The translations under genes and the position numbers were made by a program. 64,000 nucleotides of DNA, taken from NCBI GenBank assembly GCA_963751455.1, contig CAVVUN010000002.1, positions 64,001 to 128,000 of the forward strand. The letters are read 5' to 3'. The stretch's first letter is position 1. Each line of letters opens with the position of its first letter. Below, piece by piece: positions 52,787 through 61,414 of the stretch. The stretch comes from Nitrospirota bacterium (lineage in GTDB: Bacteria > Nitrospirota > UBA9217). The notes beneath the pieces were generated by a model. That model saw nothing but the letters and a program-made list of their open reading frames with translations. It searched no databases and was not told the DNA's origin.

Positions 52787-53038
52787 ATGAAACTTCACGA
52801 CCCGATAAACATCATGCTTGACTGCTGCATCCCGGACAAAAAGAGACTAATGCTCGAGTTGAGCAAATTATCTCCTGGTGAAACGCTCAAAATCGAGGTA
52901 GATAACTGCGTCATGTCCAAGGCAATGGTAGAGGATTTCGTAAAAAACAAATGGTACAGCATTGTTCAGACCGTTGAGCGGGATGATTTCACCGTTTTGC
53001 ACATACAAGCCAAGACTATAGACACGAGCACAGTTTGA
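52787..53038 (+). CDS. TusA/SirA-like sulfur carrier (atypical CCIP motif)
   Basis: 83 aa; DCCIP..L.KL.PGETLKIEVD..; TusA-like spacing and C-terminal strand. Confidence 0.7.
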   Translation: MKLHDPINIMLDCCIPDKKRLMLELSKLSPGETLKIEVDNCVMSKAMVEDFVKNKWYSIVQTVERDDFTVLHIQAKTIDTSTV

Positions 53039-53063: not shown

Positions 53064-53405
53064 ATGATTCCCATAGAAAAAAGAATCGAACTGTTGAAGA
53101 TAATAGCACACCCTGTGCGGGTAAAAATTCTCGAAGACCTGACGAAGAGCGTGAAGTGCGTAAGCGATTTCGAGGAGTCGCTCGACATCAGCCAGCCGAA
53201 TGTGTCCCAGCACCTTTCACTGCTTCGCTCTCACGGCGTCATAGATTTTTATATTGACGGAAGGCTGAAGTGCTATTTCCTCAGGGAGCCGCTCATTCCC
53301 GATCTGCTCGAACTATTGAAGAAAGAATATGAAGAAGATGTTCCGGCGCCGGCATGCTGCCCGGTGACAAAAAAGGGAACTTATCCAGGCGAAAGGAGAC
53401 ATTAA
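53064..53405 (+). CDS. ArsR/SmtB regulator with Cys-rich tail (TsoR-like)
   Basis: AHPVRVKIL, KCVSD, SQPNVSQHL..LR; tail PACCPVTK. Confidence 0.9.
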   Translation: MIPIEKRIELLKIIAHPVRVKILEDLTKSVKCVSDFEESLDISQPNVSQHLSLLRSHGVIDFYIDGRLKCYFLREPLIPDLLELLKKEYEEDVPAPACCPVTKKGTYPGERRH

Positions 53406-53410
53406 GAAGG

Positions 53411-53695
53411 ATGAAGAAACACATGATCACACTCTATGTTAACGACCCTATGGGGAAACGCTGATTATCCAATACGGAAGCCGCCGGTCGGGCGGAAACG
53501 GAATTCGGCGCACAAATCGTAGTGATCAAGAAGACATCGAATGAGTACAGCCAAGAGAAAGACCCGCCTCCGTGCCCGTCAGTAATGGTGAACGGCAGGT
53601 TCATCGCCAGGAACGACACTATCAAGTATCAGGCGCTCAAGACGGCGCTCCTGAGCGACAGCGACATAGAGGAGACGGCGTCATTATCGCCGTAA
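53411..53695 (+). CDS. Thioredoxin-like selenoprotein with NDPMGKRU (NEPxGxxU-type) motif, 94 aa (absent from ORF track)
   Basis: TGA 53462-53464 after YVNDPMGKR; frame continues to PPCPSVMVNG and TAA 53693-53695; fills the gap between ArsR and DsrE. Confidence 0.82.
53481..53495 (+). promoter_or_regulatory. Bacterial SECIS-like hairpin
   Basis: CCGCC-[GGTCG]-GGCGG; loop starts 21 nt after the TGA. Confidence 0.72.
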
Positions 53696-53776: not shown

Positions 53777-54133
53777 ATGTCGAAAACCGTTACTCTGTAT
53801 TTATCAACATCGCCGTATTCCTACGAGAACACCTTAACAAGTGCCCGCATTGCTGAATCGGCCTTGAACAAGGGCCATACCGTCAATCTCATTGCGTCGG
53901 CTGACGGTATCTATTGTTTCCTGACAAAACAGAAGGCGAAGGGCATACTGAATGCCGAGGAGGAATTTTCCCGGCTTATTCAAAAGGGGCTGAAGGTGTA
54001 CCTTTGAGGCGGGTGTCTCAACTTTCGCCGTGCGGCGAAAGACGATTACCTTGCAGGTTCTGAGGTCGGCTCCCTCAAGGGTTTGTTTGCAACCATGGGC
54101 GAGAGCGACGTCTGGATCAACGTCGGAGCATGA
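53777..54133 (+). CDS. dsrE: DsrE/TusD-family selenoprotein (U77-G-G-C80), 118 aa
   Basis: RBS aggagg; SPYS, ADGIY; VYL-U-GGCLNFR with TGA 54005-54007. Read-through gives the DsrE C-terminus GSLKGL..ESD.WINVG. Confidence 0.88.
54022..54041 (+). promoter_or_regulatory. Bacterial SECIS-like hairpin
   Basis: Perfect 8-bp stem CTTTCGCC-[GTGC]-GGCGAAAG; loop starts 22 nt after the TGA. Confidence 0.78.
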
Positions 54134-54175: not shown

Positions 54176-54529
54176 ATGGCTGCCATAGCAATGATTCTGA
54201 AGCGGTCGCCTTATGGCGACATCAACGCGGCCGAGGCCGTGCGGCACGCTCTCGGAGCCGTGTCAGGCGAATTGAGCGTGGACCTGATCCTGATGGACGG
54301 CGGAGTACTGCTTGCGAAGAAAGGACAGGACGACACCGGAACCGGCTTCACCAATCTCGAAGGCGCTCTCAAGGACTGCATCGACATGGGTGTAAGTGTG
54401 TATGCGGATGACTACTCCTTGAAGACCCAACGCGTAGGGCTGAGCGATGTGGTAGAGGGCGTAAAACCAGTCAGCGCCAAAAATATTGCGCAACTGGTGA
54501 ATGAGGCAAAATCGACGATGATATTTTGA
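54176..54529 (+). CDS. dsrF: DsrF/TusC-like protein
   Basis: RSPYG..AEA.R, DGGVLL..KGQ, SL..R; directly follows dsrE. Confidence 0.8.
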   Translation: MAAIAMILKRSPYGDINAAEAVRHALGAVSGELSVDLILMDGGVLLAKKGQDDTGTGFTNLEGALKDCIDMGVSVYADDYSLKTQRVGLSDVVEGVKPVSAKNIAQLVNEAKSTMIF

Positions 54530-54541
54530 GAGGAGGCTGCT

Positions 54542-54823
54542 ATGCTCGTGATGATTAAAAGTGCACCCGACACGACGGATGGGGCGCTCGGCTTGACCCT
54601 TGCGAAGGAAGGCAGTGCTGATCTTGTCCTGCTGCAGAACGGAGTCTACTTTGCGCAAAAGGAACGACTCGGCGCTTTTTCCGGTGCGGTGTACGTCCTG
54701 GGTGACGACAAGAGGCTCCGAGGTCTCAAGGATTCAGAAATGGATGATCGCGCGAAGACCATTGACTACGACAAGCTGACGGACATTATTACCGGAGGAG
54801 AAAAGGTTGTGGGAATGTTTTAA
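54542..54823 (+). CDS. dsrH: DsrH/TusB-like protein
   Basis: LLQNGVY, VL.DD..LRGL and IDYD motifs. Confidence 0.85.
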   Translation: MLVMIKSAPDTTDGALGLTLAKEGSADLVLLQNGVYFAQKERLGAFSGAVYVLGDDKRLRGLKDSEMDDRAKTIDYDKLTDIITGGEKVVGMF

Positions 54824-54900: not shown

Positions 54901-56091
54901 ATGGCAAGGATCGTTGTTTTAGGGGGATCGTTCGGGGGATTGACAGCGGCCTTTGAGCTGAAGCGGCTGCTCGGGAAGAAAGCGGATGTAACCGTAGTGA
55001 GCGACGATGACCGGTTCGTGTTCCTGCCGTCGCTGCCGTGGCTTATTATGGGGTGGAGAAGGCCGAAGGACATCACGCTCAAGGTCGGCGATATTTTGAA
55101 ACCGAAGGGGATCGCTTTCGTCCATGAAGCCGCGAAGCAGGTTGACGCCGACGCATCGAAGGTAATCACTTCTCAAGGCAAGGAGCTGCCTTACGATTTT
55201 CTCGTCATATCGACAGGTCCGCATCTCTCCTTCGATGAAATTCCGGGACTGGGCCCGGACAAAGGGCATACGGACTGTACCTTTACACTCGACCATGCGG
55301 TAAAGACGGGTGAAACATGGAAAAAAATTCTTGAGAACCCTGGTCCGATCGTCGTCGGATCATCGCAGATGGTGAGCTGCTTCGGCCCATCCTATGAACT
55401 TGCCTTTGAAATGGATGCCGAGCTTCGGCGTCGCAAGATGCGCCACAAGGTCCCCATCATCTATCTCACGTCGGAGCCTTACCTCGGCCATATGGGCGTC
55501 GGCGGTCTCGGCAAATCAAAAACGTTCATGGAAAACGAGTTTGCCGAACGTGATATCAAGCCGTTTATTAACCAGGCAATTCAGGAAGTGGCGCCCGGAG
55601 AGATACGGCTCAAGGACGGAAACAAAATTCCCTTCAAGCTCGCGATGATTGCCCCGCCGTTCAAGGGCGTGCCCGCCGTCATGCCGCTCGGAAATCCGCG
55701 CGGGTTCATCCCGGTTGATAAAAACTACCGTCACATGAAACACAAGAATATTTTTGCCATAGGCGTTGCAATGGCCATTGCACCGCCGGAAGCTACTCCG
55801 GTGCCGACCGGCGTGCCGAAGACCGGATTCATGACCGTAAAGATGGCAAAGATCGCTGCGGCGACTGTCGCCTCGGATATTACCGGCAAGCCAGCGCCTT
55901 TGGCTGATGAACTCGGCGTGGTCTGTCTCATGGACATGGGAAACACAGCCGCGTTCATGAAAGCGTATCCAGTACTGCCTCCCCGGCAGAGTTCGTATAT
56001 GAAAAAGACGATCTGGGCAAAATGGATGAAGGTCAGGTTCGAGAAATATTTCCTGTGGAAAATGAAGAGGGGGCTTACGAATCTGCCATGA
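54901..56091 (+). CDS. sqr: Sulfide:quinone oxidoreductase
   Basis: GGSFGG FAD fold, SCFGPSYE, VPKTGFM, VCLMDMG and FEKYFLWK. Confidence 0.88.
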   Translation: MARIVVLGGSFGGLTAAFELKRLLGKKADVTVVSDDDRFVFLPSLPWLIMGWRRPKDITLKVGDILKPKGIAFVHEAAKQVDADASKVITSQGKELPYDFLVISTGPHLSFDEIPGLGPDKGHTDCTFTLDHAVKTGETWKKILENPGPIVVGSSQMVSCFGPSYELAFEMDAELRRRKMRHKVPIIYLTSEPYLGHMGVGGLGKSKTFMENEFAERDIKPFINQAIQEVAPGEIRLKDGNKIPFKLAMIAPPFKGVPAVMPLGNPRGFIPVDKNYRHMKHKNIFAIGVAMAIAPPEATPVPTGVPKTGFMTVKMAKIAAATVASDITGKPAPLADELGVVCLMDMGNTAAFMKAYPVLPPRQSSYMKKTIWAKWMKVRFEKYFLWKMKRGLTNLP

Positions 56092-56492
56092 AAAAAGAGC
56101 TATTGAAGCTGCATGCTGATTTTTGCAAGATATTTTCAAATGCCATGCGGCTTGAAATACTCTGCCTGCTAAAGACAGGAGAGCTGACAGTCGGCGAGAT
56201 CACCGGGAAGCTTGAAATTTCAAAGGCGAATACGTCCCAGCATCTGGCCCTCATGCGCATGACGCGTATTCTGACAACGAGAAGAAAAGGCAATAATGTT
56301 TATTATGGAATCGCCAATAAAAAAATCTGCCGGGCATGCAGCCTGATGCAGGAAGGCCTGGAACAGCTTTATGGAGATGATACGACCCCACCCCGCAACT
56401 CCCCCCTTGCCAAGGGGGGATTAAGGGAGGTGTTAAAGGAGGGACAATATGACGAAGATAGTAAAAAATGTATCGATCATGTGCTTCCATGA
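56088..56492 (+). CDS. Second ArsR/SmtB regulator
   Basis: ADFCKIFSN..RLEIL, ANTSQHLA.MR, VYY; C-terminus extended by a palindromic insert. Confidence 0.85.
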   Translation: MKKELLKLHADFCKIFSNAMRLEILCLLKTGELTVGEITGKLEISKANTSQHLALMRMTRILTTRRKGNNVYYGIANKKICRACSLMQEGLEQLYGDDTTPPRNSPLAKGGLREVLKEGQYDEDSKKCIDHVLP

Positions 56493-56871
56493 CGAGCTCT
56501 GCCAGGTTTACAATGCGCTCATGACTGCATTGAGCATCCTCAGGGAAGGCTCAAAAGTCACGATGTTTTTCGGATCTCGCGGAATCAACGCGGTCCACAA
56601 GGATAAGGTGAAGGACCTCAAGTGTCTGCCGGACCAGCCCAAGGAAGAAGGCGATGCAGTGATGAAAAAAATGGAGGAAATGGAACTGCCGACAGTCGAG
56701 GACCTCTTCTTCATGCTAATCGCAGAAGGGGGGGCGGTCCTCGCCTGCCCGCTGAACGTCTCCCTGTTCAATATTACTGCGGGGCAGTTGATCGACGGCG
56801 TCAAGGTGGCGGATCCTGCGAAGTACTATAAAGAAATCATGATTCCTGCGGATATGAACCTGACTTTTTAG
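56449..56871 (+). CDS. DsrE2/DsrE3-like sulfur-binding protein
   Basis: RBS ggagg; VTMFFGSRG and VLACPLN motifs. Confidence 0.78.
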   Translation: MTKIVKNVSIMCFHDELCQVYNALMTALSILREGSKVTMFFGSRGINAVHKDKVKDLKCLPDQPKEEGDAVMKKMEEMELPTVEDLFFMLIAEGGAVLACPLNVSLFNITAGQLIDGVKVADPAKYYKEIMIPADMNLTF

Positions 56872-57011: not shown

Positions 57012-60000
57012 ATGCGTAAATTTTCTTTAGTCGAATTTTCAGTCGACCATCCCAAGCTCATTGTCGTCCTGTCGATCATTCTTACCGTCGTCTTCATGAC
57101 CCAGTTCCCAAAAGTGAGGACGGACACGAACCCCAAGAACATGCTGCCGCCTACGTCTGCCGTCCGGGTCGGGAACGATGAAATCGAAAAGACCTTCGGC
57201 CTGTATGAGGACATGATCGTCCTCGGAATCCAGAACGAAAAGGGCATCCTGAATACGGACACCCTCGGCAAAATTCAGCGGATCACCGATGAGACCCTGA
57301 AGATCAAAGGCGTTGCGGCCCGGGACGTATCGAGCTTCACGACCATTGATAACGTCACAGTTGAGGGTGAGACGTTAATGGTGAGCCCGCTCATGACCGC
57401 GGTGCCGAAGACGGATAAAGAGCTGTCCGTCATGAGGAAGGCCCTCTTCGAGAATCCGCTCTTCATCGACCGCATCATATCGAAAGACGGCAAAACCACG
57501 GCTATCTATGTCCCTCTCGAAAAGGGCTCAAACGGAAAAGAGGTCGCGGACAAAATTCGGGAGCTCGTCAGGAAAGAGAAGGGCGACGAAAAATACTATG
57601 TTGCCGGCGATCCCGTGGCAAGGGACACCTTCGGAGCGGACATGTTCAAGCTCATGGCCGTATTCGCGCCCATAGCCGGGATGGTCATGCTGATCGTTAG
57701 ATTTCTCATGTTCAAGGACCTGTTCCTCTCAATCACGCTGATGATGGACGCCATGATCAGCATCGTATGGAGCATGGGACTCCTGATCGCTCTCGGATTT
57801 CCCATCCACATCATGAGCTCCATGGCCCCCGTGTTCCTGATGGCAATCGCAACGGACAGCATGCACATTTTTAACGAGTTCTACTTCCGGTTCCGTGAGA
57901 AGAAAGACAAGCGGGCTGCGATCATCGCCACCATGCAGGCGGTCAGCCGTCCGGTCCGGAATACCGCCCTTGCAACCGCAGCTGGTTTCGCCGTGCTATT
58001 GTTCATGAACATCATCCCGGTCAAGGTTTTCGGCGGACTTGTCGCGTTCGGGACGATAGCCCTTCGTGTCCTGAGCTTCAGCTTCATTCCCGCGATGTTC
58101 ATGTTCGTGAAGGAGGAAAAGATCGAGAAAATAGCGCGATCAGAGGACGCTGAAGCAGGCGGTTCGGTCTTCCTGAAGAAACTGGCCGGGCTCGGTATCC
58201 GCAAACCCCTGACAACCGTTCTTGTCGGGATCGTGCTGATCGTAGCCGCCATCATCGGCATTTCAAAAACGATCGTAAACAACAATATGGTGGAGTGGTT
58301 CAAAAAGGGCAGCGAAGTGCGAGTCGCCGACACGGTCATGAACAAGGCCCTGGGCGGGACATCTCTGGGCTATATCGTGGCTATCTCCGACAAGGACGAC
58401 TACATTAAAACGCCGGAAGCCATGCGATTTATCGAAGGACTTCAACGCCGCCTGGAGAAACTGCCGGTTGTCGGAAAGACTACTTCGGTTGTTGACTATG
58501 TCAAGAGGATCAACCGAGTGCTCCATAACGACAACCCCAAATTCGACGCAGTCCCCGGGACAAAGGAGATGATCGGCCAGTATCTGTTCCTTTTCTCCAT
58601 GTCGGCGAAGCCGTCCGATCTCGACAACGTCGCTGACTATCCCTTCCGCAAAGCCAATATCTGGGTGCAGCTAAAGACCTGGGATGCAAAGGCCATGGAA
58701 TCGGTAATCGCAGAAGTCAATGCATTCAAAAAGGAGAACCCGACCCCGATGGAATTCAAGCCTGCCGGGATTGCCTACTTCAACCTGGTCTGGAACCATG
58801 AAGTTCTTTGGGACATGGTAAAAGGCCTTGTTTTGGCACTCATTGTCGTATTTGCTATCCTTGCATACGATTTCCGGTCCATCAAATGGGCTGTTATCGG
58901 GTATATCCCGCTCCTGTTCACGATCCTGCTCATTTATGGGGTCATCGGTTATATCGGCAAGGATTTTGACATGCCCATCTCGGTCATGAGCTGCCTCTCC
59001 CTCGGCATGGCCGTGGATTTTGCCATCCACTTTGTGAGCAGGTTCAGGCAGCGACTGAAAGAAATTCAGGGAACGGGCGACGCGAAACAACATATAACAG
59101 ATGCCTTACTCTGGACTGCAGCTCGTCCGGGGAAGGGTATCATGCGGAACGCCATCCTGTTCGCCGCGGCTTTCGCGGTAATGCTCTTTGCTCCGCTGAC
59201 GCCGTATGTCACGGTAGGCGCCTTCATCGTGAGCATGATGATGCTGAGCGCTCTTATGACGATACTCTATTTGCCCGCCCTCATAACATTGCTGCGGGGC
59301 TGGCTCTTCCAGGGAGGTACTGACGTGAAACGTGTTGCTGCAACAGCAATTGTTCTGGCATTTGCGATATTTACATCGGCAGCGGCTGCCGCGGACAGCG
59401 GAACGGATATCATGAAAAAATCCCAGGCTGCTTTTCTTTATTCAGGCAAGGACTTCAAGGCCCGCATTCAGATGAAGCTGATCACTCAGAGCGGGCAGGA
59501 GCGGCTTCGGGAGCTGACGATGCTCAGAAAGAATTTCGGCGAGCCGGGCGGCGAGCAGAAGTACTTCATGTATTTCTTTCTGCCGGCGGATGTCAAGGAC
59601 ATGACCTTCATGGTCCACAAGCACCCCGGCAGGGACGCGGACCGCTGGCTGTTCGTGCCGGCGATCAGCATGGTCAGGCGGATCGCGGCCAGGGACAAGA
59701 GCTCAAGCTTCGTAGGCTCAGATTTTTCCTATGAAGACGTTTCAGGGAGAAATATTGACGACGATACGCACGTCCTGGTGAAGGAAGAAAAGCTCGACAC
59801 CAAAGATTGTTATGTGGTCAAGAGCACGCCCAAAGCTGCAGATGTGGATTACTCGTACAAAATGTCCTGGATCGACAAAGGCACTCATCTGCCGCTCAAG
59901 GAAGAGTACTATGACAGAAAGGGCGATCTTTACAAAGTCTTTACAGCGAATGAGATCAAAACGATAAAGGGATTTCCTACTATTACGAAGCGTACTATGA

Positions 60001-60125
60001 AGAATGCTTTGAGCGGACACCGCACGGATGTTACTTTCCTTAAGGCTGATTATGACCTGGGGATCGACGACAATCTTTTCTCTGAACGTTTTCTGAAACA
60101 GCCTCCCAAGAGGTGGATTGAATGA
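57012..60125 (+). CDS. MMPL/RND-family exporter running in frame into a LolA-like lipoprotein-sorting domain
   Basis: Two MMPL halves (AIATDSMH, LGMAVDFAIH), then a signal-like segment and LolA-like domain (SFVGSDFSYED). Internal GGAGG plus GTG at 59313-59327. Confidence 0.85.
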   Translation: MRKFSLVEFSVDHPKLIVVLSIILTVVFMTQFPKVRTDTNPKNMLPPTSAVRVGNDEIEKTFGLYEDMIVLGIQNEKGILNTDTLGKIQRITDETLKIKGVAARDVSSFTTIDNVTVEGETLMVSPLMTAVPKTDKELSVMRKALFENPLFIDRIISKDGKTTAIYVPLEKGSNGKEVADKIRELVRKEKGDEKYYVAGDPVARDTFGADMFKLMAVFAPIAGMVMLIVRFLMFKDLFLSITLMMDAMISIVWSMGLLIALGFPIHIMSSMAPVFLMAIATDSMHIFNEFYFRFREKKDKRAAIIATMQAVSRPVRNTALATAAGFAVLLFMNIIPVKVFGGLVAFGTIALRVLSFSFIPAMFMFVKEEKIEKIARSEDAEAGGSVFLKKLAGLGIRKPLTTVLVGIVLIVAAIIGISKTIVNNNMVEWFKKGSEVRVADTVMNKALGGTSLGYIVAISDKDDYIKTPEAMRFIEGLQRRLEKLPVVGKTTSVVDYVKRINRVLHNDNPKFDAVPGTKEMIGQYLFLFSMSAKPSDLDNVADYPFRKANIWVQLKTWDAKAMESVIAEVNAFKKENPTPMEFKPAGIAYFNLVWNHEVLWDMVKGLVLALIVVFAILAYDFRSIKWAVIGYIPLLFTILLIYGVIGYIGKDFDMPISVMSCLSLGMAVDFAIHFVSRFRQRLKEIQGTGDAKQHITDALLWTAARPGKGIMRNAILFAAAFAVMLFAPLTPYVTVGAFIVSMMMLSALMTILYLPALITLLRGWLFQGGTDVKRVAATAIVLAFAIFTSAAAAADSGTDIMKKSQAAFLYSGKDFKARIQMKLITQSGQERLRELTMLRKNFGEPGGEQKYFMYFFLPADVKDMTFMVHKHPGRDADRWLFVPAISMVRRIAARDKSSSFVGSDFSYEDVSGRNIDDDTHVLVKEEKLDTKDCYVVKSTPKAADVDYSYKMSWIDKGTHLPLKEEYYDRKGDLYKVFTANEIKTIKGFPTITKRTMKNALSGHRTDVTFLKADYDLGIDDNLFSERFLKQPPKRWIE

Positions 60126-61414
60126 GGAAGTTCAAGACAGTAGGGCACAGATGTCAGATGACAGACTGGATCGGACTGTTTGTTTTTAGTCTGTGCTCTC
60201 TCTTCTGCGTCCTGATTTCTTCATCAGTGTTTGCAGCCGATTTTTCTTTTCACGGTTTCGCGCAGGGCAATTATTCGAGGGATACGGGTGCGGACAATCC
60301 TGACGGCAAGGAATTGAAATGGTCCGAGGAGCGGGTCCAGCTTAAGTTCGAAGCCTCGCAGGACCCGTTCCGGCTGTTTATCAAAGAAGACGTTTTTTAC
60401 GATCATCTCGATAGGGAAGCCCATGCCGAACTGCGCGAGGGTTATGCCGACTATGCCGCCGGGACGTGGGATGCTCGCGCCGGAAGGCAGATTATCACTT
60501 GGGGCCTTGGGGACCTCTTGTTCATCAACGATGTTTTTCCCAAGGACTACGAGGCGTTTTTTTCCGGCAGGCCGCTTGAATACCTCAAGAAGGGCGTTGA
60601 CGCAGTCAAAATCGGGGCCTATCCTGGCTTTGTATCTGCGGAATTTGTCCTGATTCCGATTTTCGAGCCCAACACGTTTCCTGATCCCAACCGCTTCTCA
60701 ATGTTCGATCCCTTGTCAGGCGTTACGAACAGGGCAGAGCAAAAACCGGCTTCGACCGCCGAAAACAGCGAAGTTGCGCTGCGGCTCTATCGCGACGTGA
60801 TGGGGCTCGACGGTTCCCTCTATTTCTATAAAGGATATTTCCGGCAGCCTTCAGTCCTGCCCGATAACCCAATGGCTCCGACAAAGCTCACGTTCTTTTA
60901 CCCGAAACTGAACGTCTATGGCGCAAGCCTGCAGGGAAGGGCCGTGGATGGCGTGGTGAGCCTGGAAGCCGGGTATTATGATTCAAGAGAGGACCAGTCC
61001 GGCAATAATCCCATGATCCCGAATTCCCAGACGCGGTATCTCCTGGGCTATCAAAGGCAGTTCTGGGAGGATTTCACGCTGGGCCTCCAGTACTACGGCG
61101 AGTACATGCAGGATTACGGAGAATACGGACAGAGCCTGCCTGCCGGGTTCCCTATGGACAAGCGCCTGCATCAGCTCGCAACGATCAGACTCATGCAATT
61201 TTTGAGGCACCAGACGTTGAGGCTTTCCTTCTTCGCGTTTTACGGGATTTCCGACAGGGATTACCTGATCAATCCCGAAATAAAATATAACTTCACGGAC
61301 TCTATCTGGTTTGCTCTCGGAGGCAATTTCTTCGGCGGGGAAAAACCCTGGACGCAGTTTGGACAACTGGCGAATAATGACAATGTCTATACTCAGGTAA
61401 GATATGAGTTCTAA
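60122..61414 (+). CDS. Outer-membrane beta-barrel protein (DUF1302-like)
   Basis: Signal peptide; LREGY.D, GRQIITWG.GD, FGQ..NDN.Y..RYEF with terminal Phe. Confidence 0.8.
   Translation: MRKFKTVGHRCQMTDWIGLFVFSLCSLFCVLISSSVFAADFSFHGFAQGNYSRDTGADNPDGKELKWSEERVQLKFEASQDPFRLFIKEDVFYDHLDREAHAELREGYADYAAGTWDARAGRQIITWGLGDLLFINDVFPKDYEAFFSGRPLEYLKKGVDAVKIGAYPGFVSAEFVLIPIFEPNTFPDPNRFSMFDPLSGVTNRAEQKPASTAENSEVALRLYRDVMGLDGSLYFYKGYFRQPSVLPDNPMAPTKLTFFYPKLNVYGASLQGRAVDGVVSLEAGYYDSREDQSGNNPMIPNSQTRYLLGYQRQFWEDFTLGLQYYGEYMQDYGEYGQSLPAGFPMDKRLHQLATIRLMQFLRHQTLRLSFFAFYGISDRDYLINPEIKYNFTDSIWFALGGNFFGGEKPWTQFGQLANNDNVYTQVRYEF

Follow-up and report, generated by a model that had tools for sequence, protein, structure and literature searches.

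Comparative evidence for a hidden TsoC-like selenoprotein gene beside DsrEFH and SQR genes in a Nitrospirota genome

The 64,000-nucleotide stretch of a Nitrospirota genome analyzed here (the window) very likely carries a real selenoprotein gene at 53411..53695 on the + strand, where no + strand ORF of at least 60 aa is called (table 11). From the ATG at 53411 to the TAA ending at 53695, the frame contains a single internal stop, the TGA at 53462-53464 (codon 18), and read-through gives a 94-residue product carrying NDPMGKRU and PPCPSVMVNG. The original prediction had proposed such a hidden frame from the window alone, and both the read-through product and the lack of a called + strand ORF were confirmed. 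The core of the protein covers approximately residues 1-84; the end is variable and of low confidence. We infer that SelB decodes the UGA as Sec18; in alignments, MTH895/ArsE-type thioredoxins have the second cysteine of their CxxC at this position. Sequence comparison places the protein in a sister clade of TsoC, so that it is best described as TsoC-like but not TsoC.

A relative of the window protein was found in 51 of 301 genomes of the phylum (source genome counted) and in 35 of 63 sampled genomes of the source genome's family; Nitrospirota account for 37 of the 40 named loci with a relative. The 50 proteins extracted comprise 45 with the Cys-Pro-Ser motif (the Cys-Pro clade) and five more distant ones (clade B). 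At codon 18, 34 of the 45 Cys-Pro clade copies have TGA and the other 11 have TGC. Among 30 in-register TGA homologs, differences before the TGA fall on the three codon positions as 40/18/222 (synonymous:non-synonymous 174:5), and after it as 454/376/909 (514:230); no stops were seen in these 30 sequences. The bias toward the third codon position on both sides, without stops, gives a coding pattern across the TGA. Homologs spanning this codon, whose absence would have spoken against the original prediction, exist.

The SECIS hairpin is located at 53481..53495 on the + strand (CCGCC-GGTCG-GGCGG). It has a 5-bp stem, a GGUCG loop, a UGA-to-loop distance of 21 nt and a predicted energy of -10.4 kcal/mol. 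The published bSECIS limits, as given in PMC13188914, are a loop of 3-9 nt with a G at loop position 1 or 2, a stem of 4-16 bp, a spacing of 16-37 nt and an energy of -7.5 kcal/mol or lower; with its 5-nt loop, the window hairpin lies within them. Its energy is not unusual relative to shuffled sequences (z 0.27, -0.65, and -1.20), and the GGTCG-loop hairpin described in the original prediction is backed by covariation among relatives, not by its energy. Of the 34 TGA copies, 32 preserve all five pairs; none of the 11 TGC copies does. In 30 of the 34 TGA copies, 98.7% of the cells pair, compared with 26-51% in slid controls. One pair that joins two third-codon positions covaries (CG 21, UA 4, UG 3, and AU 2 in 30 sequences), and its covariation score was reached by 0 of 500 shuffles, a control inflated by the relatedness of the sequences. 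This comparative evidence indicates that the hairpin is more than chance. Taken together, the Sec/Cys exchange, the codon pattern and the covarying hairpin lead us to reject chance read-through.

The source genome carries intact selA and selB genes and two tRNA-Sec genes, and at least five other genes with a UGA and hairpin are intact. The selA gene was found in none of the 10 genomes from the TGC-using family vs. 34 of 37 others. Of the 50 matching genomes besides the source genome, the search covered 47 and excluded three whose matches were partial or weak; the three misses among the 37 are genomes that are 63-89% complete. The contrast counts as one lineage contrast, not as ten independent ones. 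Comparison of these genomes shows that the UGA is conserved and is swapped for a Cys codon where selA is missing.

The product is predicted to have a thioredoxin-fold core, as the original prediction had expected. The AlphaFold2 model (49 sequences) has a pLDDT of 85.3 and the order beta-alpha-beta-alpha-beta-beta-alpha, and its top structural matches (Foldseek, VIA-align) are thioredoxin-fold chains (best Z 10.1, rmsd 2.1, 82 aligned). A Pfam search with the window protein gave no match, and a PDB sequence search returned only borderline ones (best E 0.054). Strand 1 of the model starts at residue 5, which leaves no room for a signal peptide, so the protein is likely cytoplasmic. In profile alignments with MTH807/MTH895-type chains and genomic CxxC thioredoxins, Gly15 falls on the first CxxC Cys and Sec18 on the second; Cys55-Pro56 (53573..53578, + strand) align with the x-cis-Pro loop, which puts a Cys directly before the thioredoxin cis-Pro position. 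The window protein has no CxxC or CxxU/UxxC pair and shows GxxU instead. Pro56, the putative cis-proline, is invariant (49/49). Cys55 is present in 51 of the 53 clade rows of the tree described below, and all 11 TGC copies retain it; within the clade it is as conserved as the cis-Pro motif. In DsbA, the cis-Pro loop borders the active site and holds the substrate cysteine in place (PMC13269488). Because that loop flanks the active site, Cys55 probably lies close to the place of the lost CxxC Cys, and a role as resolving partner of Sec18 is plausible.

The only NCBIfam match of the window protein is TsoC NF045708, with 42.3 bits vs. a cut-off of 45 (E 5.5e-11). Five canonical TsoC proteins score 115-143 and clade B proteins 54-80 (5/5 above the cut-off), whereas members of the window's clade score 31-50, with 5 of 20 at 45 or higher. 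Identity to the window protein is 36-85% within its own clade, 16-29% for clade B and 21-30% for canonical TsoC. An unrooted tree of 73 rows and 89 columns, whose bootstrap had not settled and from which two frameshifted rows were left out, separates 53 rows (51 with Cys-Pro-Ser) by a long branch with support of 100/96 from five canonical and 15 clade-B rows. A TsoC-like family had been suggested at the outset. The relationship stood; strict membership was rejected given the score below cut-off, the separate branch, the low identity to canonical TsoC and the lack of Tso operon context. Neither TsoA nor full-length TsoB was found in the source genome (G000). Among the 401 genomes from the phylum of G301, a Desulfobacterales genome, TsoC above cut-off occurs in 31 and a strong window-clade match in only 2. 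Most clade members fall just under the NCBIfam TsoC cut-off and many protein-database matches begin only past the UGA, which leaves an annotation gap.

TsoC and the window protein share N[DE]PxGxxU at the start of helix 1, a single Sec, a similar core length, the invariant Pro of the cis-Pro loop and similar neighborhoods (ArsR, an RND/outer-membrane pair, and DsrE2). The TsoC motif NEPxGxxU appears in the window as NDPMGKRU, with D for E, and D is also found in some high-scoring TsoC proteins. Unlike TsoC, the window's clade is found mainly in Nitrospirota, does not have the long C-terminal tail and carries Cys, not Ala, before the Pro; the residue is Ala in 27 of 27 canonical TsoC sequences extracted by pattern from 29 loci. 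Extra cysteines do occur in canonical TsoC, in two sequences one place earlier than the Ala, in four in the motif loop and in many in the last helix, and seven clade B sequences have a Cys past the last strand. Extra cysteines that recur near the site fit a resolving role, yet Cys55 is not universal. Canonical TsoC genes are often found as a pair of neighboring paralogs (L143, L144, L145, L154; L124), and in four loci one of the pair has N[DE]PCGLTU, with an additional Cys in the motif loop. The Cys-form clade-B proteins at L128, L129, and L130 have a Cys-rich insertion before the Pro loop and an adjoining TauE gene, and are possibly metal-binding.

The MTH895/ArsE-type thioredoxins (TIGR00412; PDB 1ilo and 1nho) resemble the window protein in their small thioredoxin fold and in a nearly gap-free alignment over the active-site helix and x-Pro loop. 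They have their own CxxC, whereas the window protein has Gly for the first Cys, Sec for the second and a Cys before the Pro; no TIGR00412 match was obtained for it. ArsD (PDB 3mwh) and Dim1 are also thioredoxin folds without a working CxxC. They differ in giving no sequence match and in not being selenoproteins, and Dim1 is a spliceosomal adaptor. Within the literature covered, TsoC-type selenoproteins are known from sequence alone. PMC13188914 lists TsoC in a table row as a selenoprotein with the NEPxGxxU motif, credited to Haft and Tolstoy 2025, and this row was the only mention of TsoC encountered; the primary Tso paper was outside the search and may mention the clade. The deep-Sep main text (PMC12013277) has no mention of TsoC or Nitrospirota, its supplements being outside the search.

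Directly upstream lies an ArsR/SmtB repressor gene (53064..53405, + strand), which ends at 53405, 5 nt ahead of the selenoprotein start. The repressor contains Cys32, Cys70, and Cys98-Cys99 in an ACCP tail, and the CCP tail is seen in 43 of 45 homolog rows. The original prediction had pointed to this tail, which is present, and to a resemblance to TsoR, which did not hold. The protein scores 30.7 bits vs. a cut-off of 115 for TsoR (NF045707) and 66.6 vs. 55 for generic ArsR/SmtB (NF033788). TsoR is likewise an ArsR/SmtB repressor ahead of a TsoC-type gene, but the true TsoR of G301, at 153.8 bits, is without the CCP tail. A search for inverted repeats upstream of the window ArsR gene gave none, and promoter and terminator counts were not above those in shuffles. 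No RNA holder appeared among the listed sequencing runs, a result that has no bearing on expression.

A complete TsoR-TsoA-TsoB-TsoC operon is present in G301 (L126:3464-6898; TsoR 153.8, TsoA 222, TsoB 1014, and TsoC 143 bits). The gene immediately after TsoC belongs to the Cys-Pro clade, which indicates that the two paralogs are able to share an operon. The locus is preceded by an RND/outer-membrane pair resembling the one in the window; VTT-domain, desaturase-like and TusE-like genes come after it. Radical-SAM partners had been associated with the Tso operon in the original prediction; none is found among the eight genes scanned in this true Tso locus (13 kb). Nor does the source genome contain a TrsS radical SAM protein over the cut-off (best 71.5 bits vs. 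490).

The predicted DsrEFH and SQR neighborhood was confirmed downstream of the selenoprotein gene. The next gene encodes a DsrE-like selenoprotein (53777..54133, + strand; PF02635, 54.1 bits vs. 22.7) with YLUGGC, a TGA at 54005-54007 and a hairpin at 54022-54041 (z approximately -2), and is a second hidden selenoprotein of the same cluster, from a known family. The pattern used recovered the [YF]LUGGC motif from 16 of 24 homolog rows and did not resolve the remaining eight. Then follow, on the same strand, genes for a DsrF/TusC-like protein (54176..54529), a DsrH/TusB-like protein (54542..54823), and a sulfide:quinone oxidoreductase (SQR, 54901..56091; 331.7 bits to PDB 3hyv), in which the SCFGP and CxxD motif cysteines align. 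The + strand continues with a second ArsR (53.6 bits to BigR vs. 155) and a DsrE2-like protein at 56088..56871, and an MMPL/RND transporter-LolA-like domain fusion with an outer-membrane-type protein at 57012..61414, related genes of which precede the true Tso operon. Just upstream of the first ArsR lies a gene for a small TusA-like protein (52787..53038, + strand; PF01206, a weak 19.1 bits vs. 28.6) that has DCCIP for CPxP; such a gene adjoins the selenoprotein gene in 2 of 43 related loci. The order of a UxxC DsrE gene (PF02635) followed by DsrF- and DsrH-like genes resembles DsrEFH/TusBCD relays, but here the set is placed within an ArsR/SQR/TauE cluster, apart from dsrAB-dsrC. The dsrAB-dsrC cluster of the source genome has its own Cys-type dsrE and dsrF, so the module in the window is a separate one.

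A synteny comparison, suggested in the original prediction as a check, identified ArsR, TauE, DsrE/F/H, and SQR-like genes as the recurrent neighbors in 43 TGA loci of relatives, many of them on short contigs. ArsR is directly upstream in 31 of the 43 and absent nearby in 8. Within 5 kb there are genes for DsrE in 25 loci, DsrF in 23, DsrH in 22, TauE in 20, a second ArsR in 14, DsrE2 in 12, SelD in 9, RND in 8, and Acr3-like and arsenite-methyltransferase-like proteins in 2 each; the SQR-like count of 23 was obtained at a permissive threshold (E 1e-5), and some of these genes may encode other flavoproteins. When only the 30 loci with 4 kb or more of downstream sequence are counted, DsrE, DsrF, and DsrH are each present in 17. 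In the 12 Cys-form loci, ArsR is found in five, TauE in four and a TlpA-like gene in seven, and no DsrE/F/H or SQR gene occurs within 5 kb. One Cys-form subgroup (L040-L046) is located ahead of a TlpA-like thioredoxin gene, behind cvpA in 6 of 7 cases, with ArsR nearby only in L041. The source genome carries a second clade copy just past the window (G000:C2:128645-128899; L008:4646-4900), 55% identical, with NDPMGKWU and the same hairpin; it is followed by methyltransferase, selD, and TauE genes, and its ArsR gene is on the other strand. Since the Cys-form loci do without DsrEFH/SQR and the second copy lies by methyltransferase and selD genes, the partner is not fixed. At L136:1715-2716 (P0020) a clade domain without Cys55 is fused to Cys-rich DUF5714, which in a few loci is also a separate neighbor. 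The usual neighbors suggest a relay for sulfane sulfur, or for selenium.

We hold with moderate confidence that the protein would be a small selenol/thiol oxidoreductase serving the ArsR-headed sulfur-relay cluster, with attack by Sec18 and resolution by Cys55. The target of Sec18 would be a persulfide or disulfide of a partner protein. The likeliest partner would be the Sec-DsrE/DsrF/DsrH carrier, charged with sulfane sulfur made by SQR, or else the ArsR cysteines. In DsrEFH, sulfur is carried on a DsrE cysteine, as described in PMC3397948. Cys55 would substitute for the lost CxxC cysteine and form a Se-S bond that resolves the mixed intermediate, after which the thiol system of the cell could re-reduce the protein. 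TauE might export the oxidized product, and the SQR, Sec-DsrEFH, and TauE module as a whole would handle sulfane sulfur under ArsR control. Counting against this mechanism, canonical TsoC and clade B do without Cys55 and two of the 53 clade rows have lost it; for the superfamily, Cys55 is not needed. Dim1, too, is a thioredoxin-fold protein with DxxC and a second Cys far from it, and it failed a redox assay (PMC6897961). A more specific version is tentative and on the doubtful side. It describes a rewired active site, with the Sec nucleophile at the second CxxC position and the Cys of the cis-Pro loop replacing the first, in a persulfide/perselenide reductase dedicated to a two-selenoprotein SQR-DsrEFH-TauE module of Nitrospirota that annotation has missed entirely. 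In thioredoxins, the second CxxC position is normally buried and the first CxxC cysteine is the attacking one. The clade offers the TsoC family a testable catalytic handle in Sec18 and Cys55. The natural Cys-only versions, such as the one at L048:3989-4243, can be expressed without Sec machinery, and the well-studied SQR, DsrEFH, and TauE neighbors point to a substrate class.

An ArsD-like chaperone or sensor for metal(loid)s is an unlikely alternative to the oxidoreductase, in which Sec18 and Cys55 would bind As(III), Sb(III), Hg, or selenium species and pass them to an exporter, a methyltransferase or ArsR. The fold matches include ArsD (3mwh; TM 0.60, rank 25), but ordinary thioredoxins rank above it. 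ArsD binds As(III) through a cysteine triad; the window protein has just two candidate ligands, Sec18 and Cys55, and its likeness to ArsD is one of fold. The nearest CxxC relatives belong to the MTH895/ArsE family, the ArsR protein retains Cys32, Cys70, and the CC tail, and Cys-rich DUF5714 occurs as a neighbor or fusion partner, all in line with metal(loid) binding. The Acr3-like and arsenite-methyltransferase-like genes in 2 of 43 TGA loci each can be cited as well, although sulfur-relay neighbors exceed arsenic genes by roughly ten to one. A mono-selenol enzyme or a selenium carrier of the canonical TsoC type, with Cys55 only tuning the site and the relay moving selenium toward SelD instead of sulfur, is rather improbable. 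In its favor, all three TsoC-type clades share just one redox residue, Sec/Cys18; a selD gene is found within 5 kb at 9 of 43 TGA loci and also follows the second copy in the genome, and comparative work (PMC5322559) ties DsrE-like domains to selD. The Cys forms, however, persist without selA, which makes the job of the clade independent of Sec synthesis, and the conservation of Cys55 on a level with the cis-Pro motif also speaks for more than tuning.

A non-catalytic Dim1- or KaiB-like adaptor, in which Sec18/Cys55 would form a redox switch and whose binding partner would be ArsR or some other protein, is improbable. The position directly behind ArsR in 31 of 43 TGA loci, the KaiB and SasA domains among the fold matches, the missing first CxxC cysteine and the precedent of Dim1 would agree with it. 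However, a costly Sec is retained at one site in many genomes, and ArsR is not nearby in 8 of 43 TGA and 7 of 12 Cys loci. Very improbable is a strain relic, in which a truly broken selD would prevent decoding of the UGA and leave the gene silent here even if active in relatives. The sole selD of the source genome, itself a Sec gene, does have a one-base frameshift vs. five homologs (G000:C2:129950-131000), and of 29 places checked it alone held a split gene. However, dsrA is split by a frameshift in the same way (G000:C2:327037-328180), so both splits read as likely assembly errors, and the one in selD is probably of this kind. The intact selA, selB, tRNA-Sec, and other UGA/hairpin genes also argue against a relic. 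Three further genes with an in-frame TGA and hairpin are located at G000:C15:1161999-1162720, C15:1669055-1669440, and C2:598612-599073; one of them is arsenite-methyltransferase-like and the other two encode rhodanese-like proteins.
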